This document shows, piece after piece, positions 1,729 through 35,100 of a DNA stretch of 63,712 nucleotides. The notes under the pieces were generated by a model. That model was not told where the DNA came from, ran no database searches, and saw only the letters and a list, made by a program, of their open reading frames with translations. Position numbers and translations under genes: made by a program. Source of the DNA: Chlorokybus atmophyticus. Lineage: Eukaryota > Plantae > Mesostigma and Chlorokybus algae. The DNA lies in contig RHPI01003369.1 in the NCBI GenBank assembly GCA_009103225.1, positions 627,500 through 691,211 of the forward strand, given 5' to 3'. Position 1 is the stretch's first letter. The number at the start of each line of letters is the position of its first letter.

Positions 1729-2393
1729 TGGCTTGTGAATATAGTGGCTATTACTAATTATGTACCTCAAGACGAGAGGGTATATTGTTTGTGCGCGCCT
1801 AGTTTGGACTGGTGTACATGGCTTCTGTGCAGGCTGGGTTGCTGCTTATATCGCAGGCCAGTCTCTTGTGGATCTTAGTCAATTTTGATGCGCTATGGTG
1901 ACAGTTTCAGCCAGTCCCTGTACATATTGTAATGACAGATGTTGCTCGTTCTGAGGATAATGTCTGACGCTGATTGTTCCTGTACACGGAAAATAACGTA
2001 ATTTACAACATTTGCCATTTGCATAAAAGCGCCTGAAAGCTGAAGCAAGGTCTGGCCACAAAACTCTCAGGCGCAACCATAGCAATAAACAAAGATATGG
2101 GAAGTGCTGTAGCGTGGTAACATCTAATATCGCTCAAAACAATCTAGAAGCCTAGATGTAAGGCAATGTAAGCAGCTGCATGAAAAGCTGATTGGTGCGG
2201 ATGAGAGTATCACATATCCACTACATCCCAGCGCACTTCAAATCTAGCTGGTCTGACACTTTCTTACATGTCTGCAGGTTGTCCCCTTGGTTGTGGTACT
2301 CCGTAGCTTCTCTTTTGCGACTTGTAAGCTCCCGCAAGTAGAAATAGGCTGTGCATTTGCGAGATTGGTCGTGCTGTTCATGCGTATAACACT

Positions 2394-2997
2394 TGTCATG
2401 CCTATTGCCCAAGCATGCCAGTCGTCATCGGGCATGCCTACAGCAAGACCCTCGCCCGGCTTACCAGCATGGCAACCCGCGCGCGCCTCTGACCAGTAGC
2501 TAGGTCATGTCCCTAGAGTAGCTCGTGACCATAGCCTGCATAGGCACCGCGCGTAGCTGTTCAATAGTGAGTTCAGTTATAAGTCCGGTTCTATATCGAG
2601 TGGGCATTTCCTGTGGAAATAGCCTCGATATGACCGTTAGCTTATGTTCTGGACAGTCATGAGTTGACTTGTATAAGCAGGCACAGTGTTCACCGGATCA
2701 GCTGGTGACACTGTAAGTGAGAAAGCTAAGAGCTTGTGAAGCGACTTGAACTACGAACATACCGTCCTGGTTCCCAAGAATCCCCTCACCGTGTGAAAGC
2801 CTGTGCATGTTCTTGTGCACTGTGCTTGTTCTTGCTGTGAGCTTTGTGTACTTGGTCGCGGTGTGCTTGTTGGCATCAGTCAGGGCATAGCATCCACGTG
2901 TTGCTTGCTCATTCACCTCACTTAACAGTGTAATTTCTCTCCCACTCACGCAAAGAACTGTGTAAACAGCACTACCCATAGTAGTGGCTTGTTGACT
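2394..2997 (+). repeat. Repeat A1 (604 bp), 5' terminal repeat
   Basis: Colinear with 12654-13257 (offset 10260); 8 substitutions counted by eye. Confidence 0.95.
2672..2677 (+). promoter_or_regulatory. Putative TATA box (TATAAG) of the Gypsy element; predicted TSS near 2704
   Basis: TATAAG lies about 32 bp upstream of the segment complementary to the PBS. It is conserved in A2 (12932-12937). Confidence 0.5.
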
Positions 2998-3009
2998 TAC
3001 AGTGTCACC
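2998..3009 (+). promoter_or_regulatory. Self-priming primer-binding site (non-tRNA)
   Basis: 2995-3009 ACTTACAGTGTCACC is the exact reverse complement of 2704-2718 GGTGACACTGTAAGT. No TGG-type tRNA PBS follows A1. Confidence 0.75.
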
Positions 3010-3208
3010 CTCTTTGCTCAAGTGAGTGTAGTTGCAAGCTGTACATCAGCATCGCAAGCTGTAGTTGTACACATCGCAGTGCAGTGTTGTCACCGTCATC
3101 GCATAGCGCGCACAAGCGCTAGTGTGTTGGGTGATAGCAGCACTGGAGATCCCATTGTAGAACACAAACACTCTACCCTTCATCCACTTTCACCATCGCA
3201 CCAGCTGT

Positions 3209-6200
3209 ATGAGCAGGCCCACCCCGTTCTCCCCAATAGACGAGGGTGACCTCAGCAGTTGGAGCCCAACCACCAACCTCACCTACGAGCGGACCAGTGA
3301 CGGGAGCATCGACCGCAGCAGCAGAGGCTCGCGCTCCATCTCCGGCTTCACCCCGCTCCACTCTACTCCTCGTCATCAAGCTTCTCCACTATCCTCGGAC
3401 AGCGACGACAACGAGATGGAGTCTTCCAGTTCAACCACATCCCTGCGCCTCTCCGGACGTGCCGGCACCACCTCGCTGGATGAGTTCATCATCAAGTTCC
3501 ACTCCAAGATGCGGCAGCAAGCTCTGAAGAACAAAGACTGGTCAGATGAGATCTCTTTCCACATTGCTGCTCAGTATCTTGATTATGAAGCACACGATGT
3601 CTGGAAGTCCGTTGCTGAACTGCATCGAGTGGACGGCTATGGCGAGCTTGCCAGCACCATAGAATCTGCATCACTGCACCGTCCAACAGGTGTCGTTCCA
3701 CCTGCCACTTCAGTTGCAGTAACAGGCTTGTCCATAGCTGCAGCTCCCAAGCAGGCAGAGGAGGAGGAACCGGAGTTGGTACTTGTAAACTTGACCCCTG
3801 CAGAAGTTGAGTCCAAGGAGGCCACATGTCGAGTTCGCATCCTTGACCGTTCTGCCGTCATCATTGAGGAACAAAGAGCTGCACAGCAAGCGGCAGCCGC
3901 AGAGTGGGGTACTCCTCTACCTCCGGCAACACCTGGCTCTCGTGCAGGAGGCAGTACCTTCACCCTCGGGTCAGTAGCACTGCGCGCACCAGCCATCTCC
4001 GTAGGTGCTGCCATCTCTGATTTGCCACTCAAGGACCTGTACGCTGCCCTGCGCCGCACCTTCCCTCCTCAGACCACCAGCAAGGTTGAGGAGCTGAGAC
4101 GCTTCCGACGCAAGCCCAATGAGGATCCCCTCCGCTTGTACTCCAGACTGGAAGGTCTGCTGAAGGACACTGACTACAGGATTGTCAGTAAGGAGGCTGC
4201 TGCAGTGATATACGTCAATGAGTTGGATGCGGCTCTAAGCGAGTCGACACGCCTGACTCTGAACTACAGCAGGCCCCTTGGCTACACCCTTAAGGAAGCT
4301 TTCGAGACTGCACAAGCCATCCATAAGCGCGCAGTGTATGAGAAAGCGGTGCTGGACACCAACCGCAGTGCCTCACGGCCTATGGCAGGCACAAGTGCAG
4401 AGCCTTTTCGGCGGGACCGCAGCCGGGCGTCGCAAGGCATCTATTACAAGGATGAACGGTCAGCTCATGCTGCCCTTGTGGCTCCAGTGCTGTGCCACCG
4501 GTGTGGTCGACATGGCCACTACCAGAAGGAGTGCACCGAAGATTACGGCAACCTTGTGTGCGACCACTGCCACAAGACGGGACACTTGGAGACAGTATGC
4601 TGGCTCAAGTTCCCTGAGCTGCGGCCCCCTGTTGGCTACAACAACAGCAACAACGCTGTTGGCTACCGCGGCCACAACAACCACAACAACAACAGGGGCT
4701 ACAACAACAGCAACCACGCTGTCGGCCACAACAACAGCAACAACGCTGGTGGTCGCAACAACGGCAACAACGCTGGTGGCCACAACCCCAACAACAACAA
4801 CAACGCTGGCGGCCGCAAGGAAGAAGCTGGCTATAGAGGGAAAAACCGCCCTCCACAGCACAAAGGACTTGAGGGACGTCCTCGCGCTGGAGCTGCTGCT
4901 GTAAAGGCACCAACCAATCCATCGGCTATCGTCCAAGTGGCAGCCCTGATGGCGCCCGTGGCACAGCTGGAGGAAAACAAGGAGCAGGACTATCAAGCCT
5001 GCTATGCTGCTAGGTGGGCATTGATGGCACCGAAACGGGATAGGGACACTCCCACGCCGTCACGCGTACAACCATCCAGACGGGCGCGCAGGGAAGCTGG
5101 CGCGTCGTCAACAGCGGCATCGTCGGACGCCACAAGCGGTGCTGCCTCGGCAGCCACAACCACCGCTGGGACGACGCCGTCGACGACACCGTCGGCGTCC
5201 ACACCGACCACGACAGCAGGTGTCAGCACTCTTGGCACCACGCTGTTCCCGGTGATGGAGAGCACCCACGCCGCAGCAACCATGGTCGTTGGGTTCGTAA
5301 GTGGTGAATCCACCACTCCTGCCTCCATCGGAACGACCACATCAACCGCAACTGCTGCCACCCTCACAGCCGCCACCTCAGTGACGACGACTGCGGCAGG
5401 TGCCACCACCATCGCCTCCAGTAGTGCTGCCATACCCACCGCACCACTTCCTGAGGGCCGGACGGCACCGCCACCAGCATTGGACGTCACACAGCAAGTG
5501 CCACGCGGGCCGCAAGCAGAAAGCGCCTGGGCGTCGATTCTACGCAACGTGGAGCCCACCACTATTGCGTACGGACCAGGGGGGCAACGCACCACGCACG
5601 TGGCACGCGATGATCGCATTTTGCCCCTACCACCGCCAGAATACCACACGCTGCCGGAACCCACACAACAGCAGCTGGAGGATGAAATCCTCGCCGGCAC
5701 TGCACCAGAGATGAGGGATCGTCTGTTCGGGGTCACCTATCGCCAACCTGCGGTGTTGGAACTGGCCATCCAGTTGTTCCTGGCATTACACACACGGTTG
5801 CAGGGCGCACCCAGTCAATCGCGACAGCCCATGCCCGCTCAACAGATCGACTTCGAGCCTTCGCCACTGGACCCACTCAGCCTCCAGCGACACAAACTCC
5901 AAGACCTCGTGGTCACGATGTCTGACATCGCGCTGGGCGCTGATGCCGCTCTCCGGGGGCTCACTCCAGGCAGTCGTCAAGAGAGTTTCTCTGCACTCGA
6001 ACAGGCCCATCGGTATCGCATGGACCAAGCTGCCCAAGTGGACGCGCGCCGACAAGCGTACGAAGCTGCACACGCCGTTATCGTACCAACCATAGCGCCA
6101 GCACACGTTGCCAGCGCCTCCACGGCGCCGACCACAGCACACTCCACAACGATCGCCATCGAGCAGCCGGGACACGCAACTGTTGCAGACCAAGCGAGGG

Positions 6201-8167
6201 CGTTGGCGCAACAATTGAGGGGAGTAATCGCCCCGCTGCTGCCTCCTTTGGTCGAAGACATGCCTGAGGATCAACGCGATGCAGGGCGAGGGTACCTCAC
6301 CCCGCAAGGGGACACCACACAACGAGGAGGAGCTGGTATGGTGGGGGAGCAACAACTCCGTACCGCACTCATCCGGCAAGCAGTCATGTTGCACAGGCCT
6401 GAGGGCAACACATTAAGACAGATGATGGGGATGCAAGACGGCAGCGCCGCGCGAGCTCGTCTCGTGACATGGCTCGTTGCCAATCACCCTGCTGTCCCCC
6501 TGTTTGCCTTTGGCAACCGAGCATCATGGTTGGGGGCATTCGTTCGTTCGCTGCGACAAGCATACGACGAGGCTGCCACCACAGCCCCGGACACGCTGGA
6601 GGGAGTGCAAGAGGCAATGCTTCGGCTGCCAGGGGTGGAAGCCGCACGGCAACGGCGGCGCATCGCCATTGCTCATGAGCTACACGCACAGCAGACTGAC
6701 CTCCAGCGCACCCTACGTGCTCGCGCCATGACTGTGCTCGATGTGGGAGTGGTACAGGGAAGGTGGGATGCCTACATGGCAGGGATCCTACGAGTCCCCA
6801 CCATTACTCACGACATGCGGCGACAGCTACTACGCGCCGTATACCTGCAGCCCATGCCTCAATATCATCATTGGACCGACACGGACACCGAGCCCACGGC
6901 CACGTGGGAAGGGACATTGGTCAGAGAAGCGGCTCATGCTGTGCGATGGACGTACGCCGCGGAGCAAGCTGAACGCGAGGCAGGCCCACAAACACCGGGT
7001 CCGCCGGGGTTCCCTCCACAGCCACTGGGTACGCCCGTGGGCATGATTCCAGCTTCTCAGAGGCGTCATCCACCTGCGCCGCCACCACAACCGGCGCCGG
7101 AACCTCCAGCACCGAGGCCCCCCCGTGTCTACCAACCACCTCGACAAGGTCGGTTCGGCAGAGGGAGAGGGCAAGGAGGGGGTTCTCCGGATCCAGCAGG
7201 CAGAGGAGCTCTGGCTGCCATGCGCTCGGCATCTCCAGCTGAGGCAACTGAGTCAGAGGAACAAACACCTCGTATGAAGAGGTTGCGTATCGACGCCAAC
7301 GCTGCCATGGTGGCCAACCAAGGCAAGCACGTTACCATCAACGGTCTGGCACCCAAGCGGGTAATGTTGGACACCGGAGCACAGCCTGTCATCATCGGGC
7401 GCTTCCTCGCGCGGTCCCTAGGCATAACCAGTTCCGACTTGGTGCCTTGCCCGTGCGTGTTGGACACTGCCACAGGTAGCCGGGATAAGGTGATGGGAGT
7501 CACCAGGGAGGCCTTTTGCATTCGGTTGATAGGGCTGGACCCAACCCACACGACCGAGATCGTCCAGCAATACATGGTCACCAATGCCGGCTCCTTCGAC
7601 TTTCTGCTTGGGCAGGATTTCAACTTCCCTGTGGGCATGGGCCTCGACTGCTGCACAGAACGAGCGTGGTTTCGGCCACATTGGGATGAGGATGACGGAG
7701 AGGTACAGGGTTTCCTGCCTCTCGAGTTGGTCTCGCGCACGCGCGCCCAACGCAAAATGGCTGCCATGGCCACACGCAGACACGCCCGCACCCGTAAGGC
7801 TGTAATGGACATATACGACGGTGCTCAGACGCAAGTCGCTGCTGGTGCCACAACCCCGTGTCAAACCGGCGACCCTCCTCCCATCTCGTACAACAAGGAG
7901 CAGGAGGATGCCACCGTGGAAGTAGCATTACAAGACCCAGCTGAACGGCGCTGGCGCGCACAGGTGGACGCACACATCTTGCTCAGCCACCCACTGATCA
8001 CCACGCGCTTCCCCAACTACCGAAGCCACGTCAAGGTGCAGGACCACATATGGTGGCCACCGGAGTGGTGGAATTCCACACCTTTCGCAGACAACAGGGC
8101 ATCACAGTGTTGGAGCTGTTTGGAGGCATTGGCAGTGGTCTTGCTGCGGTCCTCAACACGGGCGTGA
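3209..8167 (+). CDS. gag: Gag-protease polyprotein (1652 aa)
   Basis: Capsid-like segment (LRRTFPPQTTSKVEELRRFRRKPNEDP). Two zinc knuckles, CHRCGRHGHYQKEC and CDHCHKTGHLETVC (4493-4600). Aspartic protease RVMLDTGAQ...FDFLLGQDF (about 7330-7640). Confidence 0.88.
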   Translation: MSRPTPFSPIDEGDLSSWSPTTNLTYERTSDGSIDRSSRGSRSISGFTPLHSTPRHQASPLSSDSDDNEMESSSSTTSLRLSGRAGTTSLDEFIIKFHSKMRQQALKNKDWSDEISFHIAAQYLDYEAHDVWKSVAELHRVDGYGELASTIESASLHRPTGVVPPATSVAVTGLSIAAAPKQAEEEEPELVLVNLTPAEVESKEATCRVRILDRSAVIIEEQRAAQQAAAAEWGTPLPPATPGSRAGGSTFTLGSVALRAPAISVGAAISDLPLKDLYAALRRTFPPQTTSKVEELRRFRRKPNEDPLRLYSRLEGLLKDTDYRIVSKEAAAVIYVNELDAALSESTRLTLNYSRPLGYTLKEAFETAQAIHKRAVYEKAVLDTNRSASRPMAGTSAEPFRRDRSRASQGIYYKDERSAHAALVAPVLCHRCGRHGHYQKECTEDYGNLVCDHCHKTGHLETVCWLKFPELRPPVGYNNSNNAVGYRGHNNHNNNRGYNNSNHAVGHNNSNNAGGRNNGNNAGGHNPNNNNNAGGRKEEAGYRGKNRPPQHKGLEGRPRAGAAAVKAPTNPSAIVQVAALMAPVAQLEENKEQDYQACYAARWALMAPKRDRDTPTPSRVQPSRRARREAGASSTAASSDATSGAASAATTTAGTTPSTTPSASTPTTTAGVSTLGTTLFPVMESTHAAATMVVGFVSGESTTPASIGTTTSTATAATLTAATSVTTTAAGATTIASSSAAIPTAPLPEGRTAPPPALDVTQQVPRGPQAESAWASILRNVEPTTIAYGPGGQRTTHVARDDRILPLPPPEYHTLPEPTQQQLEDEILAGTAPEMRDRLFGVTYRQPAVLELAIQLFLALHTRLQGAPSQSRQPMPAQQIDFEPSPLDPLSLQRHKLQDLVVTMSDIALGADAALRGLTPGSRQESFSALEQAHRYRMDQAAQVDARRQAYEAAHAVIVPTIAPAHVASASTAPTTAHSTTIAIEQPGHATVADQARALAQQLRGVIAPLLPPLVEDMPEDQRDAGRGYLTPQGDTTQRGGAGMVGEQQLRTALIRQAVMLHRPEGNTLRQMMGMQDGSAARARLVTWLVANHPAVPLFAFGNRASWLGAFVRSLRQAYDEAATTAPDTLEGVQEAMLRLPGVEAARQRRRIAIAHELHAQQTDLQRTLRARAMTVLDVGVVQGRWDAYMAGILRVPTITHDMRRQLLRAVYLQPMPQYHHWTDTDTEPTATWEGTLVREAAHAVRWTYAAEQAEREAGPQTPGPPGFPPQPLGTPVGMIPASQRRHPPAPPPQPAPEPPAPRPPRVYQPPRQGRFGRGRGQGGGSPDPAGRGALAAMRSASPAEATESEEQTPRMKRLRIDANAAMVANQGKHVTINGLAPKRVMLDTGAQPVIIGRFLARSLGITSSDLVPCPCVLDTATGSRDKVMGVTREAFCIRLIGLDPTHTTEIVQQYMVTNAGSFDFLLGQDFNFPVGMGLDCCTERAWFRPHWDEDDGEVQGFLPLELVSRTRAQRKMAAMATRRHARTRKAVMDIYDGAQTQVAAGATTPCQTGDPPPISYNKEQEDATVEVALQDPAERRWRAQVDAHILLSHPLITTRFPNYRSHVKVQDHIWWPPEWWNSTPFADNRASQCWSCLEALAVVLLRSSTRA
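4635..4812 (+). repeat. Imperfect coding tandem repeat (GGCyAC-AAC-AAC... units; Gly/Asn-rich) in gag
   Basis: Repeated G[YH]NNSNxA[VG] units directly after the zinc knuckles. Confidence 0.8.
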
Positions 8168-11100
8168 AGGTTACCAAATACTGTTACTGCGACCCAGACC
8201 CACACGCGCAAACGGTCCTCAAGCACCACTTACGCCAACTGCACACCAGGTATCCACGTCAACTACCCCTCTCGGCGTTGCAAGGCAGCCTCAAAGCATT
8301 GCCACAGGACGTCCGGCTGATCACTGAAGATCACCTACTGTCCCTCGGCAACATCGACCTGTTAATAGCTGGATGGGAATGCCAAGGGCACTCCAGGGCA
8401 GGCAAGGGACAAGGCCTCAAAAACCCTCGCTCCAGGTTGTTCTGGGAGCTGATGAGGATCATCCACCTCCTTCAACACCACCAGATCTCCAGACCCCTGG
8501 GGTACGTCATCGAAAATGTGCATAGAGAGGACGACAAGCGTCCGCACGTGGCCTCCAGCTACCGACAAGTTTGCTCCATTCTGGGGCACCCACTCAAGGT
8601 GAACGCGGCACGACATGGCTCGCGCGCACATCGTGTACGTGCCAAATGGACAAACTTGGCCACCGTGGAGGAGCTCATGACCGCCGAATACACGCGCAGC
8701 GCTCGGCCGCGCAACCTGCTGGTCGACGACATCCTTGACCCCGGCCGCACAGCACAACCTGTCTTGCATCATGACCACAACCACTTCTACCAGTGCAATC
8801 AGCCTGGTCAGCCCCGTCGCGCACTCCCCACATTGGTGTCCTACCCGGGCTCCTACGCATTTCGGAACGGTGGTGACGGGATGGTATTTAATGCAACCAC
8901 CAACACGTTGAAAGAACCCAACGCACGCGAACGTGAACGCGCCATGGGCTTCTTCCCCAACAGCATCACAGGTTCATCGCTGACGGACAATCAGCAATGC
9001 CAGCTGGTTGGTCGCGCCATGGACCAGAACAGCATGGTATGGCTGCTGGAGCTGAGCTTCGCGTTGCAGGACCGCCACGTGTCCTTTGAGGATCTCGAAC
9101 ACTTGGCTGGGGGGTGGGCTGATCGCGTCGACACCAAGGCAGCTCACACAGCTCTCGAGGTGATCCACATGGAGGAGCAAGCGGCAGTGACAGTGGAGGA
9201 CATTCCTGTGGTTGCCAATGCGACCTCCTGGGACCATGCCATTGGCCCGTTGGCCACGGAAGACACTCGAGAGAAGCTGGAGGCTCTCCTCAATAAATGG
9301 AGGAGCCAATTCAGCTTCAATGTGAAGGAATTGGGTACATGTTCGGTGTACCAGATGGACATCGAGCTAGTGGACACTGAGCCGGTGTTCCGGCGACAAT
9401 ACAGGCTCTCCAAGTTGGAAGAAGACTTGGTGGAACAGAGATGTAAGGCGCTGCTGGATGCAGGCCTTTTCGAAGAGTCCACATCGGACTTCGCAGCAGC
9501 AACCGTCATGCCCTTGAAGAAGGATTCAGCAGGCAACTGGACAGAGCGACGCATGTGTGGCGACTATCGTCCCCTCAATAACAAGACCAAGCAAGACCGG
9601 TACCCCATGCCCACAGCAGAGGGTATTTTTGATGATGTGGGAGACTGCACAGTCTTCAGCATCCTGGACATGCGTCAGGGGTACAACCAGATCGCCATCA
9701 AGGACGAGGACAAGCACAAGACCTCCTTCTGGGGCAACCGACAGTTGTACCAATGGAAGGTAATGCCGTTCGGGCTGAAGAATGCCCCCGCCAAGTTTCA
9801 ACGCGTCATGGACAAAGCCTTGAAGGGGCTGGACTGCGCGCGGTGCTACATCGATGACATCCTCATCTTCAGCCGCAGCAACGAGGAGCATCTTCAGCAC
9901 ATCGAAGCGGTGCTGGAACGACTCAAGGGAGTGGGGATGACCGTACACCCCGACAAGTGTACCTTCTTCACCCACAAGGTGCCGTACTTAGGGCACATGA
10001 TTGTGCCCCATGGTGTGTATGTGCAGCAGGCAAAAGTAGAGGCTCTGGCAGCTATCCCTGCCCCGACAGACCTCACACGTCTGCGCGCTTTCTTGGGACT
10101 TGCCAACTACTATCGCCGGTTCGTGAAGGACTTCGCGAAGATCGCAAGGCCCCTCAACGAGCTACTGAAGAAGGAGGTGGAGTTCGCGTGGAAGGAGCCG
10201 CAACAGCAGGCCTTCGAGGAGCTGAAGAGCAGACTCACCAGCGCTCCCATCCTTCAACGTCCGGACTACGCCAAGCCTTTCATCCTTCACACCGACTGGA
10301 GCAAGCTGGGGATGGGAGCGGTGCTGGTGCAGCACGATGAGCACAAGAAGGAGCGGGTGGTGGCATACGCCAGCCGAAGCAACAACAGCACTGAGGCCAA
10401 CTACAGCAGCTATGAAGGGGAATGCCTCGCTGCAGTGTGGGCCATCTCCTTCTTCCGACCTTTCCTCTTTGGTCGACAGTTCCAACTGATCACCGATCAT
10501 CAGCCCCTCAAGTGGCTGATGACCAACCAACATCTGACAGGGAAACTTGCTCGATGGGCCCTGCTGTTACAGGAATACGACTTCGAGATTGACCACCGCG
10601 CTGGCCTCACCAACCAAGACGCCGATGGCCTCAGTCGCAACCCCCACCTCAGCACCAACGACGCAACTGGAGCGCGGCATGAGCTCATCCCTGCAGCAAC
10701 AGCTCCCACCATGGCAGCCATGTTTGCTGCTGCCGCGTTGCGCTCAGGGCGCAAGACCAACACCACAACCTCAGCAGTGGTAGAGGAGATTCCTGCCCTT
10801 GAGTCTACTGACCCTGCGGCAATCACACCCTTGGGAGACGCCCACGCAGCCAACATTGACGTCGATGACACAGAGCTGGCGTCCACTGACACCAGGCAGG
10901 ACATATGGCACGACAAGCCATCACTCTCCTTTCTTCAACATGGCCATCTCCCCTCTGGCATGAGCGCTCGAGAGAAGGACCGGGTCAATCAACGCACCCG
11001 TCACTATCGATGGGCAGGTGACAAGCTGTATCGCCGCTTCCACGACGAAGACAAGAAAGTGCCGACACCAGTCACGCGCGAGGACATCATCACTTCCCTC

Positions 11101-12364
11101 CACACTGAGCTTGGACACTTTGATGTCAAGCGCACAGTCAGTCTAGTGAGAGCACAATATTGGTGGTATGGATTAACAAAACAGGTGCAAAGGTTCGTCA
11201 GCCACTGCCAGCAGTGTGACATGGTGCGCGCCAGCCTCAACACGCGCAGCGCCACCTTGCACCCACTCCCCATCTCCGGTCTCTTTTACCGATGGGGACT
11301 CGACATCTTGGGGGACTTGGCACCCTCAGCACGTGGCAACCGTTACATCCTGGTTATGATTGAGCACTTCTCCAAATGGGTGGAGCTGGTGCCATTACCC
11401 GACAAGAGCAGCAGGGGGGTGTCTCAAGCCTTCCTCTCTCACGTTCTCAGCCGCTTTGGCAGCTGCGCCGAGGTCATCACCGACCAAGGTACTGAGTTCT
11501 GAGGGGAATTCGACACCCTCTTGGACAAATGTTACATCGACCACCGCCGTACCCTCGCGTGATCACCCTTAAGCCGACGGCCTCGCCGAGCGGACGGTAC
11601 AGACCATCAAGAAGGCACTCCGCAAATACGTGTTGGAGTACAAGAAGGACACTTGGGATGACCACCTCCCATGGGTGGCCCTTGGATATCGGTTGTCAAA
11701 ACAGGCGGCTCTGCGGGAGTACAGCCCGTACTACTTGCTGTTTGGGCGACCACCATTGCTCCCCTTCCGTGCGCAACAGGAGGTGGATAGCGTCGTGAAC
11801 AACCTCGACGACCCTGACTGGATGCACCACGACATCACCACGCGCGCCGCACTTTTCGAGCGCACCGTCCCCATGGCCTTCAACAATCAACGCATCGCGC
11901 AGCATCGCAACACGCTGCGCTACGAGCGCGTACGCAGCGGCTTTTACAAGGAGCGCCAACGGCGATTCCAAGCGGGGGACTTTGCCTATCGCATGGCAGC
12001 CACCAAAGACACGCTTGACACCTCCGTAGGCCGCACCGTCTACAAGGTACTCAAAGTGTACCCCACAGGGGTGCTGGACCTCCTTGGTCAAAACGGAGAA
12101 AGGTTGAAGGACAACATGGTGAACTGTGCGCCATGTCACCTCCCTTACGTAGCTGGCTTCGGGCGTATCCAGCACCCTCGTCCTGCGCGCAGCACCCGCT
12201 GTGAACACTGCGGCAGCGCCGGCGACGACGCACTTATGATGCTCTGCGATGGCTGCAACAAAGGCCTGCATTGCTACTGCCTGGAGCCACCTTTGAACAC
12301 GATACCTATGGAAGAATATTGGTGCGACGACTGCCGTACCAACGGCCCTCCTCACTTGCGCTAG
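8050..12364 (+). pseudogene. pol: Pol: DNMT3-like C5-methyltransferase, RT, RNase H, integrase, PHD; integrase core disrupted
   Basis: DNMT motifs LELFGGIG, DLLIAGWECQ, YVIENV, HRVRAKWTN, LVGRAM. RT motifs RMCGDYRPLN and YIDD. RNase H ILHTDWS...EGECLA. Integrase HTELGH/CQQC, WGLD, TDQGTEF. TGA at 11500-11502, an extra base near 11552, and TAA at 11570-11572 break the core. PHD at 12200-12334. Confidence 0.92.
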
Positions 12365-12401
12365 CAGCTGAGCTCTGGAGCTGGAACCTTCCCCAGAGCC
12401 C

Positions 12402-12409
12402 AGGGGGGG
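12402..12409 (+). promoter_or_regulatory. Polypurine tract-like AGGGGGGG
   Basis: Purine run just after the pol stop and directly before repeat B1. Confidence 0.6.
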
Positions 12410-12651
12410 TGGCTTGTTGACTCTGTATGCTACGGCACAGCATGTTCTTAGGGAAAACACCGACTCCATCTGCCCGTACTACCCAGCAGCAGCACCCCAG
12501 CTGCACGAAGCACTTGTCACCATGAGGGGGGAGGTCATCTTTCTGTTCTTGCTACGCGTCACCCAGGTGGCGCAGCAGCATGTCCAGCACAATATGGCTG
12601 TCCATGCAGCTGTCCGAGACAGCGTGACCCTCGACTCCCCTCGACCCGACA
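12409..12651 (+). repeat. Repeat B1 (243 bp)
   Basis: Colinear with 13244-13486 (offset 835); 6 substitutions; ends CCCGACA. Confidence 0.95.
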
Positions 12652-12653
12652 GC

Positions 12654-13257
12654 TGTCATGCCTATCGCCCAAGCATGCCAGTCGTCATCGGGCATGCCTA
12701 CAGCGAGACCCTCGCCCGGCTTACCAGCATGGCAACCCGCGCGCGCCTCTGACCAGTAGCTAGGTCATGTCCCTAGAGTAGCTCGTGACCATAGCCTGCA
12801 TAGGCACCGCGCGTAGCTGTTCAGTTGTGAGTTCAGTTATAAGTCCGGTTCTATATCGAGTGGGCATTTCCTGTGGAAATAGCCTCGATATGACCGTTAG
12901 CTTATGTTCTGGACAGTCATGAGTTGACTTGTATAAGTAGGCACAGTGTTCACCGGATCAGCTGGTGACACTGTAAGTGAGAAAGCTAAGAGCTTGTGAA
13001 GCGACTTGAACTACGAACACACCGTCCTGGTTCCCAAGAATCCCCTCACCGTGTGAGAGCCTGTGCATGTTCTTGTGCACTGTGCTTGTTCTTGCTGTGA
13101 GCTTTGTGTACTTGGTCGCGGTGTGCTTGTTGGCATCAGTCAGGGCATAGCATCCACGTGCTGCTTGCTCATTCACCTCACTTAACAGTGTAATTTCTCT
13201 CCCACTCACGCAAAGAACTGTGTAAACAGCACTACCCATAGTAGTGGCTTGTTGACT
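12654..13257 (+). repeat. Repeat A2 (604 bp)
   Basis: Copy of 2394-2997; begins TGTCATG two bases (GC) after B1. Confidence 0.95.
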
Positions 13258-13486
13258 CTGTATGCTACGGCACAGCATGTTCTTAGGGAAAACACCAACT
13301 CCATCTGCCCGTACTACCCAGCAGCAGCACCCCAGCTGCACGAAGCACTTGTCACCATCAGGGTGGAGGTCATCTTTTTGTTCTTGCTACGCGTCACCCA
13401 GGTGGCGCAGCAGCATGTCCAGCACAGTCTGGCTGTCCATGCAGCTGTCCGAGACAGCGTGACCCTCGACTCCCCTCGACCCGACA
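13244..13486 (+). repeat. Repeat B2 (243 bp), 3' terminal repeat
   Basis: Copy of B1; overlaps the A2 end by the 14-mer GTGGCTTGTTGACT; followed by TSD CACT. Confidence 0.95.
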
Positions 13487-14187
13487 CACTGGAGGCTGTG
13501 CATGAGGGTGTGGTATTTACATCGTATGTCATGTGCAAGATACTTGAGGATGTGCATGTGCAAGATAAAAGAACCCTAGCATGTGGCATTGACAGTGCAT
13601 CGTAACCCACCTTGGTTATGCCAGTCTTGTTTGGTCCCTTCAATCATGTCGCCGTGGTCGCAGCTGCTGGTGGGTCGAATGCTCTTGGAGGTAGTATTAT
13701 GGTGTGCCTTTTCCCACTCGGAGGGGAGCCCTCATAAGATATCGCTCAAGCCACTGTTGTCATTGGCTGTGCCTTTGGTAGGCATGGTGGGGTTTGACAC
13801 CAAGGACACCCCGCTGGCACCTTGCCCGCCCTATGCGAGCATGGGGCTTCATCCCGGACCTCGACCACAATGCCCACTACGCCCTTGGCAGCGCCGCCAA
13901 CGATCCACCAAACGCCACATACCCTCGGCATCACCGCCCTGTAAGGGCATAGCTTGGCGGAGCCATCAATAGTGTTTTCATGCGCAAGGACTGGCATTGC
14001 CAGCACTTGTCAATGTTACGAATTGCCATTGCCACTGTATAAAGGTACCATTGAAATGATACCTTTGTACAAAGGCATCTTCGAACTATTGAAACGGTAC
14101 AATCAAAATCTATGCAAACTCACCCCACCCTGGACATGCAATGGCTCGATCGTATTATAATAATAGTACGACGGAGCCGTCACGCCA

Positions 14188-20251: not shown

Positions 20252-20653
20252 TGTTGAAGATATTCCTACATTCGGTCAGCCTGCCCTGCATACAAGAGAG
20301 AAGAGAAGGGACCTCGATGGGAGGACCTCGAAGACTCCGGACATGAAGGTCCTGGCGCGGACTGCAGAGAAGTGTCCTAGGAGAATCGTCATATCTCCTA
20401 GGATACTCAGTCTTATAGGACATGGCATAGCTTGTTGGAAAGCTTATCAAGTTAGCTACGTGGCACATCTTACAGCGTAGGATTCGGTTCAGTAGATCGG
20501 ACGCTGTTGCATGTAGACCAGCAGTGTGTACAAACTGTGTACTGACTGGCGGGTATATGACCCCGCGGTTTGTTGGTAATAAATCGGGAAGTGTGTTGCC
20601 TTCTCCTGTGTGTCATTGCTTGCCCTCTTCACTTGCATGCTTGCTTCTCAACA
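20252..20653 (+). repeat. Copia 5' LTR
   Basis: TG...CA; direct repeat of 24912-25313. Confidence 0.97.
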
Positions 20654-20976
20654 GGTTATGGGCCCACACTACGCGTGAAGAGTGTAAGAAAGAGAAAGAA
20701 AGCGAAGTGAAGAAAAGTGACAAAGTGCATTGAAGTGAAGATCGAAGTCACTCAAGACTGAAGAGTGAAGAGAAGACCGAAGTCACTCAAGACTGAAGGC
20801 GCTGAAGAGTGAAGTGAAGACCGAAGTCATTCAAGACCGAAGTCATTGAAGTCACTGAAGAGTGAAGTGTAGGTTAAAGTTACTGAAGTCAACAAAGTCA
20901 CTCAAGTCACAACACGTGAAGATTATCAAAGCAAGTCTCAAGTGCTAACTGCAAGAAGAAAGCAGGCGCGGCAAAG

Positions 20977-23900
20977 ATGGAGGTAAGCTACGATAAAGGG
21001 CTGATCACAAAGCTGGACACAAACAACCACAGCACTTGGTGCGTAGAGATGAAGGCACTACTTATCCACAAGAAGATGTGGAAGTATGTTGACCCGAAGG
21101 CATCTGCACCAAGAGCAGGAGAAGAAAGCATCTGGCTTGAACACTCAGTTGAAGCACATTCCTTGATGGTGTTTAACTGCAAGCCACATCACTTTCCCAC
21201 GCTCATAGCATGTGAAGATGGCAGACAAGCTTGGGAGAAGCTTGCAGCCGTATTTCAAGCCAAGAACAACGCCAGAAAGTTACAATTACGCAAGCAGCTA
21301 AGCGCGCTTCATAAAGAGACGTCCGAGCCGGTCACAAAGTATGTTGCACGTGCGAGAGAGCTGTGGACGGACCTCATCAACGTCGGCCACAAGATGGAAG
21401 AGACGGAGGTCGTATTGGCAATTGTTGCAGGACTGCCATTAGAATACGAAGTTGTCGCTACTCTGCTCGAGACATCGTCATCGGAGCTAACCCTAGACGA
21501 TGTGCTACCCAAGTTGCTCACTGTGGAGCAACGCGTCTCAAAGAAGGAAGAGCAAGCGGACTCTGTGGCCTTCTACACACGAGACAANAAGACAAATACA
21601 AAAAATTAAGCAACTATGAAGACAAGAACAAGGCGAAAGGCAGCAACTCAAAGTTCAAGAATCTCACATGCCACTATTGTGGTATTAAACGACATATCTC
21701 AAAGGATTGTCGTAAGCGCCAACGAGAGCAATCTGAAGCAGGTACCAGTAGCAACGCTCAACGCAAAGAAAAGGGTGTTGCGTTTACTGCCTTAAGAAAG
21801 TTTGATACAACTTCATGGGCAATTGACTCAGGCTGTGACCAGCATCTCACACCGCACAAGGAGGTGATGGAGAACTACAGGAAGATGTCAACCACAAGGA
21901 AGGTGGAAGGCTTTAATGGTCACGAGTTGGAAGCAATAGGAGTTGGTGAAGTGAGGCTTCAATGCAAGTTTGGTGATGGTGAGAGAGAGGTGGTACTGCG
22001 TGAAGTATTGCACGTACCTGGAGCTGCTGCAAGCTTGTTTTTTGTGAGAGTTGCTGAGTGCGTGGGAGCTGAGATAGTGATCCGGGAGGGACGCTGCTCC
22101 GTACGCATGGATGGGGTCAAGTACATGGTCGGCACCCAACGAGGAGGGCTCTACATTGTGGAGCAGACTCATGGCAGCAAGGCTATGATCGTGAAGGAGA
22201 AGGAGACGGCTGAGCTTTGGCATCGAAGGTTCGGGCATTTGGGCTATAGCAACCTCACACGCCTGGTCGCTGAAGACATGGTGAAGGGCATTACTGGGAG
22301 CAAGGAAGATTTTCAAGCGTCTTCAACTACGCTCTGTGAACCCTGTGTGTTGGCCAAGCAGCATCGCATGCCGTTCTCATCATCTTCTTCAAGTAGCAAA
22401 CATCCCTGCGAGCTTGTGCACATGGACGTTTGCGGGCCTATGCGCATTGTGGCGAAAGGAGGGGTAAGGTACTTTGCAACATTCCTCGACGACTACAGCA
22501 AGCTTTCCATCGTCTTCCCTTTGATTCAAAAGTCAGAAGTCGCTGGAGCTGTGCGTACAGTCATTGCATTGCTTGAGATTCAATCGGGCAAGAAGATGAA
22601 AGCAATGAGAAGTGATCGAGGAGGGGAGTACATCAACGCCCAGCTCAAAGAGTTCTTCGCCAGCAAAGGCATACGGCATGAGACAACAGCACCATACACT
22701 CCGCAGCAGAATGGAGCAGCTGAACGTCTCAACCGAACGTTGTTGGAGCGTGTTCGAGCCATGCTCAATGACACCAAGTTGGAGGACAGTCTGTGGAAAG
22801 AGGCCGTTCTCACTGCCAACTACATCCGCAACCGTTCACCGATAAGCTCTGAGCAAAAGACTCCGTGGGAGCTCTTTTACGGTGAAGCGCCAGATGTGAG
22901 TGGCATGCGTGTGTTCGGATGTGTGGCATATGCACTTGTGCCAAGTCAATTGCGACACAAGTTGGAGCCGGTCAGCAAGAAGGGCATCTTCGTTGGCTAC
23001 GAACCAGGCTCAAAGGCGTACAAGGTCCTACTGGAGGACACGCGCAAGATTGTGGTGAGCAGAGAAGTCGTGTTCCACGAAGGCTCATCACAAGTTGAAG
23101 CTGAAGAAGGTTTCTACCCTCAAGATGAAGATGACAAAGCACAACCTGAAGAGCTTTCAAGCAGAGAAGAGGTTGAAGGCGAGGCATCAGTCATCAATAA
23201 AGAGCAGGGCTCATCTGTAGCAGATGAGAAGCAGAAGCAGCAGGAGCAAGCTCGACGCTACCCAGTAAGGGAAAGACAAGCACCTGACTTCTACAAGGCA
23301 CACATCGCTAGTGTGCACAATCACGAGAGTGAAGAACCAAGCACCTGCGAGGAGGCATTGCGAGCACCAGATGCAGAACAATGGCAGCGAGCTATGGATG
23401 ATGAGATTGCATCACTCCATGCCAACAACACATGGGTGTGGGAGAAGCCCCCGCAAGGTGTGAAGCCCATTCCGGTCAAGTGGGTGTTCAAGGTGAAGCG
23501 TGATGGTCAAGGCAACATCGAGCGCTACAAGGCAAGGTTGGTGGCAAAGGGATTTTTGCAACAAGAAGGTGTGGATTTCAATGAAGTGTTTGCACCTGCA
23601 AGTAAGCATGCAACCTTCCGCACATTGATCGCCATGGTTGCTGCTGAAGACCTCGAGTGTCACCACCTTGATGTGAAGACTGCTTTCCTTTACGGAGAGC
23701 TGGAGGAAGAGATCTACACCAAGCAACCACCAGGCTACGCAGAAGGGGAGCCAGGCATGGCTTGCAAGTTGATCAAGGCTTTGTATGGGCTGCGACAAGC
23801 ACCACGTGTGTGGCACATTCGCCTCACGAAAGAGTTGGAGAAACTCGGCTACAAAGCATCCTCAGCGGATCCGGGGCTCTTCATCCATGAAGAGAAGAAG

Positions 23901-24866
23901 GTTTACTTGCTCGTGTATGTGGACGACATCATCGTCACGGCCAAGCAAGTTGAAGACCTGAAGCAAACGAAGCACGGATTGCAGCAAGCATTCGCAGTAC
24001 GCGACCTTGGAGAGGTCAAGTTATTTCTTGGCATGGTGATAGAGCGTGACAGAGCAGCACGCACAATCAAGATCAGCCAAAAGCAGATGGTGAAACGACT
24101 TGTCACCAAGTTCGGACTCAACGAAGCAAAGACCAAGTCTACTCCATTGGCACTCGGCACCAACCTCATCAAAGCGAAAGATGAGGAAGTACTCGACAAG
24201 GCTCAGTATCCCTATGGTGAGCTTATTGGGAGTATGCTCTACCTAGCAGTGTGCACAAGACCCGACATCGCACATGCAGTTGGAGTGCTTGCGCGCTACA
24301 TGTCTGCACCAAGCATGGAGCACTGGCGTGCAGCGAAGGGAGTATTGCGCTACGTGGCTGGAAGCGCAAGTGTTGGCATCAAGTTTGGTTGCGGAAGCAC
24401 AGAGATGGAGGGCTATTGCGACGCAGACTTTGCAGGTGACCTCGATAGCAGGAGGTCCACAACGGCGTACGTCTTCAAGTTGAATGGAGGCGTGGTGAGC
24501 TGGAACAGTAGGCTGCAACCCACAACAGCTGCATCTACTTCAGAAGCGGAGTACATGGCAGCATCGGCTGCAGTGAAGGAGGCGTTATGGCTTCGCAAGC
24601 TGATGGCAAATCTGGAGCACCCGATGGCGTGTATCACGATCAACTGCGACAACCAAGGCGCCATCAAGTTGCTGAAGCACCCCATTGCCTCGACAAGGAC
24701 AAAGCACATTGATGTCATGCATCACTTTGTGCGAGACAGAGTCACACGCAAGGAGGTTGAGTTCCAATATTGCAATACGGAAGACATGCTCGCGGACTTC
24801 ATGACGAAGCCACTGTCACCGCTGAAGTTCAAGGCATGTTGCAAGGGACTCGGCATATGTGCTTAG
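20977..24866 (+). CDS. gag-pol: Copia gag-pol polyprotein (single apparent frameshift at the ambiguous base N 21588)
   Basis: Gag (NHSTWCVEMKALL), zinc knuckle CHYCGIKRHISKDC, PR WAIDSGC, GAG-pre-integrase LWHRRFGH, IN HMDVCGP/RSDRGGEY/NGAAERLNRT, RT YVDD, RH YCDADFAG. Confidence 0.93.
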
Positions 24867-24911
24867 GTGAAAGAAGACCAAGCGTTGGAGGCCAAGCTGC
24901 CCGCGTGGGAG

Positions 24912-25313
24912 TGTTGAAGATATTCCTACATCCGGTCAGCCTGCCCTGCATACAAGAGAGAAGAGAAGGGACCTCGATGGGAGGACCTCGAAGACTCCGG
25001 ACATGAAGGTCCTGGCGCGGACTGCAGAGAAGGGTCCTAGGAGAATCGTCATATCTCCTAGGATACTCAGTCTTATAGGACGTGGCATAGCTTGTTGGAA
25101 AGCTTATCAAGTTAGCTACGTGGCACATCTTACAGCGTAGGATTCGGTTCAGTAGATCGGACGCTGTTGCATGTAGACCAGCAGTGTGTACAAACTGTGT
25201 ACTGACTGGCGGGTATATAACCCCGCGGTTTGTTGGTAATAAATCGGGAAGTGTGTTGCCTTCTCCTGTGTGTCATTGCTTGCCCTCTTCACTTGCATGC
25301 TTGCTTCTCAACA
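24912..25313 (+). repeat. Copia 3' LTR
   Basis: Direct repeat of 20252-20653. Confidence 0.97.
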
Positions 25314-29832: not shown

Positions 29833-31577
29833 AGCACAACTTTTGGGTTGCATTTCCGCGGGAGTCCTGAAACGAGTTTGTGCGTCATTGAACTGTAGAT
29901 GCTGGTCGGTGGCCGCAGCTTGCTTAAGACATGTGCCGGCTGCCTTAGATTTTGTCTTATATACAGTTTTGCCTCAGAGGTAAATGAGTTGCCTAGGTTA
30001 GTAGTGCACGCGCTGCAGGAGTTGCCTTGGCACTTGAACTGGTGCGGTGCTGTTCGCACGGGAGGGCAGGAGGTTTTGTACCTTGAGGGTTAGTAAACAA
30101 GAGCCTCAAGAAATGCTGCGGATGATACAGCTTATGCAAGTTTTGCTGGAGGTTGTGTTCTCATAGACTGGTGAGTGCACAGTTGCAGAGTGTTACTCCT
30201 AAACCACCCGTTGCTCAATGCGACCTCTGCAGTTTCAGGGCCACAGAATCTTGTGTACATGGCTGCAATACAGCAGCTCAGCTAGTCTCAGTCAACTGTG
30301 GGAGATTTGGCAGACGCGCTTTGTCCGCCCTGGTATTGTGCTCGGCTGTGTGTAAAGCAGTAGAGATGCGGACAGGGTGCAAGCAGTGCCCCAGCAAGCA
30401 CACATGTGCGTGTGTATCGCTAGACTGCTTTGTTTGTACCTGCGGCCTGCGGCGCATATGTGTGTAGGCAGCAGTGGCAGTGTGATAGCATTGGACGGTT
30501 GTGTTAGTGGTCCATTTCATGCACACATAAGCAAACTGATCGACCAGCGGTCACAACATGGCAAGGTGTCACAATACGCACAAACGTACAGGCACGGTGT
30601 TGTTGGCGGAGTGGCCAGGTTGAGCCGGAGGATGAACGCTTACAGGCAGTTAGTATTGCGCAATTGCAGCCAGCATAGCAAGCAAGTGGTAGTAGTCTGC
30701 TGGCCCCCACAGCGACCCTCGCAGCAAAACAAGAGCAAGGAAACACCTAAGACAGCACATCACCTTATCGCAGCCTCTGTGCTACAGGTCAATTGCTAAA
30801 CTCCCTCAATTATCAATGACATACAAGCGCTCGATGTCTAGTGCTGCCACCACGCCTAACGCCCATCATGCCCAATCAGACACAACCAACATACAAGATG
30901 TGCTGCAACGCCGTAAGCTATGACTAACTATTGGCGACGGGTCTTACACTTACACGGGGGGAGTCTGCTAGTCATTGTGGTCGTCAACGTGGTCCTACTC
31001 AAGGCTGACTCTACTGGCGATGTGGCAGGTAATGCATGCTTGCAGACTGACAGGGTTGGGCAGTTGAGTAGTGAAGTAGGTAGTGTGTACCTAGCCCGGA
31101 GGTCGTGATAGAGGTGAGTGTGATTGTTGTTAAGTGTCCATGCATGTGTCGTGCATGTTGCATACATCACGTGCATATTCTGTACACTAGTCACATCGCA
31201 TTTAGGGCGGCTGCACAACACTGCGCGGCCACAACGCTGCACAGCACAGCACTCCCACCCACGCCCTCACCCTCGCCCTCACCCTGCTGTTGCTGCTGAT
31301 GTTGTTCAAGCTCTCCTCGGGGTCGTCTAACGCCTGTCGCTGTGTGACTACAGGTGGTTCACCGTTGCTGCTATTTTGCTTGCCCTGCCCTACATGCTGT
31401 GCCGCCCTCATCCCCGCCCTTCCCTTCACTTAAAAACAGCACATAGCTAGCATTGCCCCTGTCTTAATTCCATTCCCTGTTGCCTAGCTTGCCTTGTGAT
31501 GTTGGCCTATGCTGTGATGTCATCGTGTGTGGTGCGCGCTTTGCATCATGCGACACTTGGATAGCTCATACAACCCT

Positions 31578-32160
<583 letters not shown>

Positions 32161-35100
32161 AGCATGGGTTGAACTTTGCCTTGCCTATGCTGCTCTCGCT
32201 TTGCCTACCGGCTCCAATATTGCCTTGCACATCATTGCACGCACGTAGATAGATACTTGCCCCTGCCTACGGCATAATTCATTGCCCTGCCTTTTGTGTG
32301 CTTGTGCCTTTCGCTGGTGCTTATACGGGGTTGCCTATTGCAGCCAAGGTACGTGGTCAGCCTGCCCTTGAGCGCCATGTTGTTCAGTTGCCTTGAAGCA
32401 ATTGGCAACTGCAAGCTCCTTGCGCTTAATAGAATACCCATTAAAGGATCATATGTTTTGTGTGAATATGAACTTACCTTAACTCAATTGTGATTAGACG
32501 CAACATGTTAAGAAGCGAACAAGCGAACATGAACGCGCAATCGACATTGAGTCTTTCGCACGTTTAAGGAAATGGGTGCAATTGACATGCTTTGATTGGC
32601 AACGGATGATTTGTAAAGTCGATTTGCGTGCAATCAATGGTAGAAAAACTACTTTCAGTAAGGTAAATTAACAAAGTGAAAGCAACATCACACGTAAAGT
32701 CCACGTCCAATTTTATCTCTTATGGTACTCTACAACCTTTGAGTTATGCTTTATCGGCAACTTACAGCGGCTACAACCGGTATTGAACTTGAATGCAACC
32801 GAGTAACCAATACTCCCCCACCAGATGGGAGGTGTTTACGAACATCAGGACAAGCGCATTTAATCAGCAATGGTTTTACATCAATAGCATGCAATTTAGC
32901 GATTAACTTAGCAATACATAAGAACACATGCGTGGTCTCTGTGTTTGGCAATGGTGGTTTGCTGGTAATTACAATGTGTTTTGATTGTGCAACATGAGGC
33001 TTTAAGACATAGGTGGTCCTTGCTTTCAACACCTAAGTTTTTGGGACTCATATGTACCCATTTCGTGACAACTTATTACATGAGGTGCGGTATCTCACTG
33101 GGATAAAATGACCATCCATTGTTATTGTCGTAGAACCGTGAAAGGCCCTTTACTTTGGATGGATTCTAAACTTGCACATATGACCACACCATAACAGTGA
33201 GATGGTTGCAAACATTTGTCATAAAAACCCAACAACACGTCTGCATTGCCATGTTATTATGAAGTGACATGTCTAAAACTAAGCAGAAAGTAACCATTCT
33301 TCCTCCAGCAACCTGCACATCTTGCCCGTTAACAAAATGTTGATCAATAAGAAGCGAGGGGGTTTCCCTCACTTTTTGCGGCTTGATAAAGGGGACAGTC
33401 ACTTTATTTTTGTATATTCAATTTTATTATTATGCCATGATGTTGTTGTACGTAGGATGGTCACAACATGGTGGGGTCTTAAGCTTGTATTCAAAAATTT
33501 ATGGCCAACCCGGTTGGCAGCAAACTTGTAGGTGATCTACGAGTGTCATGTGCTTGTTGCTTATGTTTGTTGCGCTGAGTGGTAGTGGCCAGTTATTAAC
33601 GCTTCGAATGCATGCTGATATGGATGGGGTGCTTGTATACAATTCTGCATCATGCTGAATTGAGTCATTCGTAACCATTTTATTGCTGGCAAGTTGTGGT
33701 TGCGTGACTATAGAAGAATGCTAATGAGCACTTCATCTTACATGCGGCCCTTGTATACAGCTTGCACAGCATGTACCGCGCGCCTTGCGGCTAATACCAT
33801 ATGAACTCATGCAACTCAATAATCATGGTTGCTTTTGTGTTATGGCTGCGGTGCTAAGTTGTTTAATAACACAAGGCGTCACCTCGATGCAATTATATTT
33901 CTATAGATGCATGCTTGGCCCCGTTGCTTTATCATATGCTATCATTTTTATGCTATCTTTCGAGTGTGCATGTTGCCCTTTTCGGCGTCATAACAAAGCC
34001 CATCGTCAACAAAGGTTTTAGTAAAGGCAACAAGAAACAACGGGCTTAAGCAGTTTGCTCTTATTAAGACAATCCTTGGTATAAAGTTCAAGAAATATGC
34101 AATCAGCATCCACGGCTATAGATCACATTGTTAATTGAATGCCCCTTGTAACACCATTGCTGCAAGCTTGCCCTGTTGCAGGCTCAGGCTTAAAAATCTC
34201 CTATGCTGCTGCTGTGAAATCGAAGTCAATTTGTTAATTATACAACCGTATTCACGTGCGCACGTAGATATAGTTCGCGCGAAGTTCAAGTGAGTTATGC
34301 TCATGTGCATGCACGTTGTAATGGTCAGATTGGTTAGTTGCTTGACTGCCCTTGCTGCCTTTGCATGCACAGAGCGCATTGAGTTATTGGGCACTCACGG
34401 CGAGACAGTCATGTGGTCTGTCTCCGCTTGCTTGCTTGGTTGTGTGGTGAGTGTGTAATGGGTGTAACTGATCTATCAGCATCGACATATAGATGTTGGC
34501 TGCCAATTTTAGTTCAAAGTATACAATGCTGTATATGTGTGCCGTGAGTCCTATTCCAATCGACATTATGCTATTGGTGAACAGACAAAGGTTAGCAGTA
34601 AAAAAACACTGTTATTGGCGCTACGGACTCAATGGTCACAATGTCACACCCATTCACAACACATAGGGGGCATATCAATGAGATTGAGCAAGATTTATAC
34701 GAAGTGTAGGGGAGGCAACAATAGGCAAACAACTCATGATTTAACACATACAGCTTAACTGGCCTACGGGGCTGGGGTCTATGTGCAATGCTGGCAGGCC
34801 TAGGGGCAAGCGAGACGCTTGGCTGTGGGTCGCCGCCCAAAAATACCGGAGCAGCGCAGCAGAGCAGAGGACAAACCACAACCATGCTTGGTGCAGTCAT
34901 ATGCCACAGTGAGTCATCGCTTTTTACATGTGAATCCAGTAGGGTGTGCACCAAGCCAGCACTGAGTTACGGTTGCCATGCACGCAGCAACAACCTGCAT
35001 TATAATACTATGCACACGACAGCACCAGCACAGTATAGGGAGTGCGACCCACTTTGCGGGGACATGCATAGGGTAAAAGAGAGGGTCCCCCCGGTAGTAG

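Follow-up and report, generated by a model that had tools for sequence, protein, structure and literature searches.

An internal attachment-site junction within the permuted repeats of a Ty3/Gypsy element from Chlorokybus atmophyticus, and a possible route of integrase cleavage

The Element and Its Internal Junction

The window analysed here is a stretch of 63,712 nucleotides from the alga Chlorokybus atmophyticus (assembly GCA_009103225.1, contig RHPI01003369.1, positions 627,500 to 691,211). It carries a Ty3/Gypsy element of 11.1 kb at positions 2394-13486, whose parts, as established by comparing the window with itself, follow the order A-coding-B-GC-A-B. The outer left repeat, A1, recurs internally as A2, and the internal repeat B1 recurs at the outer right end as B2; both copies of A open with TGTC and both copies of B close with GACA. 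Direct reading of the letters places GACAGCTGTC at 12648-12657, where the end of B1 meets the start of A2 and GC forms the sole two bases between them. A first-pass annotation of this DNA had described GACA-GC-TGTC as a fusion of the element's right-end and left-end sequences, that is, a junction of two attachment (att) sites whose spacer is missing from the outer ends. Both parts of that description are borne out; at the outer ends GC is missing and CACT follows directly on either side. The features of the element are as follows.

2390..2393, plus strand: left target-site duplication CACT, 4 bp, matching 13487-13490
2394..2997, plus strand: A1, left terminal repeat, beginning TGTC; predicted 3' part of U3, R and U5; 98.7% identical to A2
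2672..2677, plus strand: TATA-like box about 30 nt ahead of the predicted self-primer, retained in other families of the genome
2704..2718, plus strand: predicted transcript 5' end and self-primer, a 15-nt perfect complement of 2995-3009; same geometry with different sequences in distant families
2995..3009, plus strand: predicted self-priming primer-binding site (PBS) at the end of A1, with 98 exact 18-mer matches genome-wide
3161..8167, plus strand: gag, zinc knuckle and aspartyl protease (stop-to-stop frame; Pfam)
7945..11502, plus strand: C5 DNA methyltransferase, reverse transcriptase (RT), RNase H, integrase zinc-binding domain and start of the integrase core, with a stop inside the core (Pfam)
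11573..12364, plus strand: C-terminal part of integrase and PHD finger, in a different frame; window copy broken (Pfam)
12402..12409, plus strand: G-run polypurine tract (PPT), predicted plus-strand primer, adjoining B1; 173 exact PPT-B 17-mers in the genome; a G-run also lies ahead of B in distant relatives
12409..12651, plus strand: B1, predicted 5' part of U3, closing GACA; 97.5% identical to B2
12609..12623, no strand: upstream inverted repeat GCTGTC-CGA-GACAGC, family-specific, likely incidental; second copy at 13444-13458
12648..12657, no strand: att-att junction GACA-GC-TGTC, spacer at 12652-12653 (self-comparison, genome copies, relatives)
12654..13257, plus strand: A2 (self-comparison)
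13244..13257, plus strand: 14-nt overlap in which the end of A is the start of B; the A2/B2 joint, predicted join of two complementary DNA (cDNA) ends (self-comparison)
13244..13486, plus strand: B2, right terminal repeat, closing GACA (self-comparison)
13487..13490, plus strand: right target-site duplication CACT, 4 bp, matching the left copy

Conservation of the Junction Within the Genome

Further copies were fetched from the 74-Mb assembly. Across all families fetched, with junctions located by anchors that ignore the junction itself, the spacer measured 2 nt in 55/55 anchored junctions and the exact 10-mer was kept in 53/55, the remaining two deviating by one C-to-T change each; among the first 30 loci, GC formed the spacer in 27/27 anchored junctions. 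Exact junction 15-mers numbered 140 genome-wide, against 1 for the reversed control. Taken alone, the 10-mer is nothing unusual for the window (3 matches when one mismatch is allowed versus 3.79 expected), so the significance of the junction lies in its position and conservation rather than in its rarity. Target duplications, tallied by eye in the 35 copies with both outer ends, were exact over 4 bp in 30 cases, carried one mismatch in 4 and two mismatches in 1. Because they are 4 bp long and variable, host DNA is not the source of the 2-nt spacer. The first-pass annotation had singled out spacer invariance for checking, and it is upheld: the spacer neither varies in length nor equals a target duplication.

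GC also opens 6 of 26 outer right flanks and was considered there as a retained spacer. This was rejected, as in the copies whose left end is seen (C3603, C1216, C1788, C1249) it forms part of the 4-bp duplication. The same 26 flanks show a target bias, with A at +7 in 18 and T at +3 in 14.

The recurrence of the half-sites upstream of the junction, also noted at first pass, is real at 12609-12623 and 13444-13458, but a functional role for it was rejected. The repeat is within chance, being present in 71 of 300 shuffles of B, and is not conserved, being paired in 33/38 family-1 junctions and in 0/17 from other families.

Coding Capacity and Classification

Pfam matches follow the order gag-protease-RT-RNase H-integrase, as in Ty3/Gypsy elements, with a methyltransferase and a PHD finger added. 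The C5 methyltransferase domain (7945-8530 region) lies between protease and RT, and many homologues carry one. The integrase shows the HHCC and D-D-35-E motifs of Ty3/Gypsy, with D, D and E kept in 27, 27 and 26 of 27 clade rows. In the window copy the reading frame changes ahead of the methyltransferase, and the integrase core contains a stop as well as a frame change. In the three long frames of the element, Pfam detected neither a tyrosine recombinase nor any nuclease domain beyond RNase H and integrase; its Pfam matches also lack a C-terminal chromodomain, the PHD finger standing in its place. Named homologues are mostly from the green lineage (Calypogeia, Klebsormidium, Closterium, Marchantia, Tetraselmis), and Klebsormidium nitens proteins, ranked by similarity, are 42-47% identical.

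The TG...CA ends and the 4-bp target duplication agree with Ty3/Gypsy elements, in which duplications measure 4-6 bp. Two complete direct long terminal repeats (LTRs) ending at the PPT and PBS boundaries are missing. The element is a Gypsy element by its proteins and non-canonical by its repeat structure. A younger sister family at C481 and C2939, with 83% protein identity, encodes gag to PHD in one open frame of 3044 codons. An AAC-rich repeat lies within gag at window positions 4629-4818.

Priming Signals and the Predicted LTR

The G-run of the PPT adjoins B1, not A2. On the other side of the coding region, the end of A1 is the exact complement of a segment about 30 nt past the TATA-like box, and this geometry of self-primer and PBS is kept with four different sequences, in the window element, a low-GC family of relatives, L172-174 and L154. 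The complement spans 8-15 nt in 6/7 full elements of the low-GC family (at least 11 in 5) and only 8 nt in L201. A tRNA primer site after A1 was not seen by eye. Self-priming is familiar from Tf1. Self-priming elements place the primer complement inside the LTR, just past the TATA box, according to the relevant passages of PMC6317226 and PMC2864245.

A PPT before B and a self-priming site after A together imply a predicted LTR of the form B-GC-A, whose U3 would contain the att pair. The cDNA is accordingly predicted to be [B-GC-A]-coding-[B-GC-A], and the genomic form is predicted to be a circular permutation of it, opened at the junction. Divergence between B1 and B2 is 1.6% within a copy versus 6.4% between copies (28 elements), and that between A1 and A2 is 1.7% versus 3.7% (14 elements, with the own partner closest in 12). 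Given the position of the junction inside the predicted LTR and the homogenisation of both pairs within each copy, the att site is likely carried mid-LTR and regenerated in each cycle, in line with the earlier proposal.

The joint between A and B was considered separately. A subgroup variant of the overlap is present at the PPT side and at the A2/B2 joint and absent from the end of A1; the bases of the joint therefore come from B. In the Chlorokybus genome, where the overlap measures 14 nt, 53/55 joints are precise, the exceptions being C1800 and C46; the joint of C2045 is odd, contains an N and was sorted into the other class. Among the 15 joints of the low-GC family, 6 are two-base overlaps, 5 are blunt and 4 are deleted or odd, and on a weakly resolved tree the joint types are unclustered (6 changes versus a shuffled mean of 7.3). 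Such variable, unclustered joints fit end joining made anew at each insertion, and the A/B joint looks like a product of that process.

Other Genomic Forms and the Permutation Bias

Besides the complete form, three others are common, namely A-coding-B copies with duplications (9 paired), A-B units standing alone (3 paired) and arrays with 2-4 junctions, although all three could also come from recombination or assembly collapse. Head-to-tail dimers through the GC junction are present at C2939, C1407 and C1800; the one at C2939:67233-79869 (L105, L107) consists of two full forms connected via B-GC-A, as expected from a dimeric or recombined circle. The mirror form, A-B-GC-A-coding, is represented by a single truncated case on C3352. 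This copy, from 336375 onward (L061), shares its left flank with a normal copy at C67:4862, and one repeated target or one insertion is possible. At C1044:5436-13456, left and right ends are oppositely oriented with ATCT flanking both, possibly through internal inversion.

The exact junction follows 41 of the first 100 listed PPT sites (173 in total), and it precedes 0/67 PBS sites, these being the ones, of 98, within the range of the junction list. This permutation bias is the main result opposing a simple symmetric circle.

Relatives in Metagenomes and in Chlamydomonas

A scan based on an integrase alignment gave 80 metagenome loci at 37-56% identity, falling into 24 clusters. In the 165,625 bases behind their integrases, the exact 10-mer occurs 9 times versus 0.06 expected, while a coding control gave 0 in 279,485 bases. 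These 9 loci span 7 clusters, and decay-type variants bring in 2 more; the junction thus recurs in relatives at 40-50% protein identity. The low-GC family comprises 7 full elements of the form A-coding-B-A-B, with 4-bp duplications that are exact in 3 and carry one mismatch in 4. Its AT, AC and GT spacers were considered as compensatory change and rejected as such, since C-to-T and G-to-A decay is expected at two CHG sites and neighbouring positions are similarly hit. A scan of viral contigs returned 3 weak matches only.

Parts of the Chlamydomonas reinhardtii repeat library (PMC9940879 supplement) were read by eye. Among the 19 internal records with ends seen there, 13 close with CA-GC, followed by an LTR opening TG. 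The CA-GC-TG families are Gypsy-6 to -11, -14a and -18, of which Gypsy-14a shows the full A..B-GC-A-B layout; Gypsy-12, -13, -15, -16 and -17 end in the usual purine tract. By eye, only CA-GC-TG is constant across the families in these parts, and the outer two bases of each arm vary. These library families thus hold a CA-GC-TG core, and the perfect 10-bp palindrome described at first pass is not required. Gypsy-7a_cRei reads G-run, 8 bp, GC and LTR start in its library record, so its B is 8 bp long, and a figure legend gives its left LTR without the final 8 bp (PMC9940879). This family made 86 new insertions in one laboratory strain (Craig et al., PMC9940879). The internal record of Gypsy-21_cRei in the supplement opens GC-TGTC after an LTR closing GACA, and resembles a left-side junction or an array.

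Proposed Mechanism and Its Alternatives

The favoured reading, with a probability of roughly 0.65, is that a DDE integrase opens the PBS-proximal att-att junction by a staggered cut after CA, the cDNA ends being joined before or after. Firstly, RNA would start in A about 30 nt past the TATA box and prime itself after A1, and the plus strand would start at the G-run, giving the linear cDNA predicted above. Secondly, integrase would assemble at the junction within the left repeat, the one near the primer, the likely reason being that this repeat is the first to be completed; early binding there is favoured by the permutation bias. The cut would yield CA-3'OH ends with 2-nt 5' GC overhangs, like retroviral 3' processing. 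Recessed CA ends with 2-nt 5' overhangs are retroviral integration intermediates (relevant passages of PMC11054761), and foamy virus integrase is described as cleaving palindromic LTR-LTR junctions (PMC1180852). Thirdly, strand transfer and repair would follow, and their product is observed: outer TGTC...GACA without GC, and a 4-bp duplication. Repair of the 2-nt 5' overhangs would remove GC, matching these outer ends. Finally, the true cDNA ends would join to form the A2/B2 joint, either before the cut, as a 2-LTR circle, or after insertion, through the 14-nt overlap in this genome and through sloppier end joining elsewhere. Going by intasome footprints, a free end of only 8 bp, as B would be in Gypsy-7a, seems too short to be held; this speaks for joining before the cut. 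The product, A-coding-B-GC-A-B, would retain one junction and a terminally redundant transcript, and junction-less A-coding-B copies may arise from one-LTR circles or B-B recombination.

Several results weigh against this route. If the substrate were a symmetric circle with two junctions, the two permutations should be equally frequent, but one dominates (0/67 versus 41/100), the junction beside the primer site almost always being the one that would have been opened, and for retroviruses the circle-junction route has been rejected, as stated in the same passages of PMC11054761. The own B1 is closest to B2 in only 19/28 elements. Inheritance would equally give 53/55 precise joints in the Chlorokybus genome, and the tree of low-GC joint types has only 2/12 inner branches starred. 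No self-primer was found in L123, L155, L165 and L177, and 15/24 metagenome clusters are without a junction, many of them having short tails.

The strongest alternative, although an unlikely one, is that the ends are produced by reverse transcriptase. Through an additional switch of template, B would come to lie at the right end, and synthesis would halt at the junction on both strands, so that a linear cDNA, GC-TGTC...GACA-GC, is trimmed by normal 2-nt 3' processing and the palindrome reflects a shared template instead of a cut site. Such a scheme accounts directly for the one-sided permutation and requires no new integrase activity, and the 14-nt overlap may act as the jump site, being preserved between families that elsewhere in their repeats are about 70-80% alike. 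Against it, two precise stops at one primerless site are needed; the overlap measures just 0-2 nt among the low-GC elements, and L172-174 have none; and dimers and arrays read through the junction intact.

It is improbable that the CAGCTG core is cut by a nuclease of the host or of other origin, with integrase carrying out strand transfer only. This hexamer is indeed the constant part across C. reinhardtii families in the library records seen, but the implied cut lies exactly 3' of CA on both strands, which is known integrase chemistry (relevant passages of PMC11054761), the site is kept from algae-like to low-GC hosts, and RNase H and integrase are the only nuclease domains found by Pfam. Still less probable is integration of a circle at the junction by a tyrosine recombinase acting in trans, as in DIRS, Ngaro and PAT elements: the repeat layout is the same as that of DIRS-type elements (PMC5890265, legends of Fig. 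1e and 4c), but TG...CA ends, variable 4-bp duplications and spacer loss are DDE signatures, the catalytic triad of integrase is conserved and Pfam finds no recombinase domain. The least probable explanation is a tandem or nested insertion of a solo LTR beside the element, with GC as target DNA, because, although A-B also stands alone, copies of the form A-coding-B are present and arrays reach four junctions, the spacer is always 2 nt and nearly always GC, the duplications are 4 bp and variable, a single duplication bounds the entire unit and the same junction is found at 40-50% protein identity.

Returning to cleavage by integrase, a wider claim is put forward tentatively, at slightly less than even odds. 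A Gypsy clade widespread in the green lineage, which may reach from the chlorophytes to the bryophytes and take in the transposon that is most active in Chlamydomonas laboratory strains, may have moved its att sites into U3, may depend on an internal att-att cut of end-joined circular cDNA, as a natural and obligatory version of the circle-junction route rejected for retroviruses, and may have converged on the DIRS layout.

Other Features of the Window

A separate Ty1/Copia element lies on the plus strand at about 20252-25211. Its repeats are 99% identical, its gag spans 20920-21609 and its pol, of 1183 aa, spans 21315-24866; the leader holds short tandem repeats (20723-20898). A long CA microsatellite, which includes an N, spans about 31570-32250. 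On the plus strand, 51506-54127 is an open frame of 873 codons with a weak match to the IQ motif, probably a host exon.

Comparison with Known Systems

To our knowledge, in every well-studied LTR element the priming sites set the cDNA ends, which are the att sites, and end-joined circles are dead ends. If the proposed mechanism is true, cDNA ends and att sites are uncoupled in these elements, end joining belongs to the productive cycle and internal cleavage is a normal task of a DDE integrase. Annotation is affected as well: programs that look for LTRs as a pair of equal terminal repeats would overlook the clade or set its bounds wrongly, and junction-less A-coding-B copies possess no LTR pair. 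A literature search, with theses, Repbase reports and most subscription journals outside its coverage, found no account of the junction or mechanism. This LTR retrotransposon variant is probably new and its integration route probably unusual.

The layout itself is already in print for KnitGypsy-Dnmt3 of Klebsormidium nitens (de Mendoza et al. 2018; legend in PMC5890265) and is implicit in the Chlamydomonas library. KnitGypsy-Dnmt3 is described as having a Gypsy Pol with a C5 DNA methyltransferase, as here, and the Fig. 4c legend reports a DIRS-like repeat arrangement with Gypsy domains. The window element has both traits, kinship being judged by similarity ranks. The passages of PMC5890265 on this element give no junction, priming signals or integration mechanism. 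Gypsy-7a_cRei resembles the window element in its PHD finger and in CA-GC before the LTR (relevant parts of PMC9940879). It differs in its B of about 8 bp, versus 243 bp here, and in an internal part that opens TGG, like a tRNA primer site, where the window element has a self-primer. For the Chlamydomonas layout, the passages of PMC9940879 concerned offer no mechanism.

Tf1, Sushi and Tcn1 chromoviruses share the LTR-internal primer complement past the TATA box (passages of PMC6317226 and PMC2864245), here at the sequence level. They have ordinary full LTRs and a chromodomain, whereas the window element has permuted repeats and a PHD finger. DIRS-order elements share with the window element the A-coding-B-A-B layout and an internal end-to-end junction. 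These split-direct-repeat elements, such as Ngaro, PAT and TOC1, use a tyrosine recombinase; the window element is unlike them in its DDE integrase, TG...CA ends, PPT and 4-bp duplication.

In the Panganiban-Temin model, the junction of the retroviral 2-LTR circle is reportedly cleaved. Whether a circle junction can act as the precursor of integration, a question of long standing, becomes testable in an element that moves in C. reinhardtii laboratory strains. The retroviral junction is likewise a palindromic att-att substrate from which integrase gives 3'-processed ends, as proposed here. According to the relevant passages of PMC11054761, however, it arises when linear ends are ligated, its spacer has 4 bases, and normally it does not act as the precursor. 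The window element instead carries its junction, with a spacer of 2 bases, hard-coded in the predicted U3, and the predicted join of its cDNA ends is a separate site.
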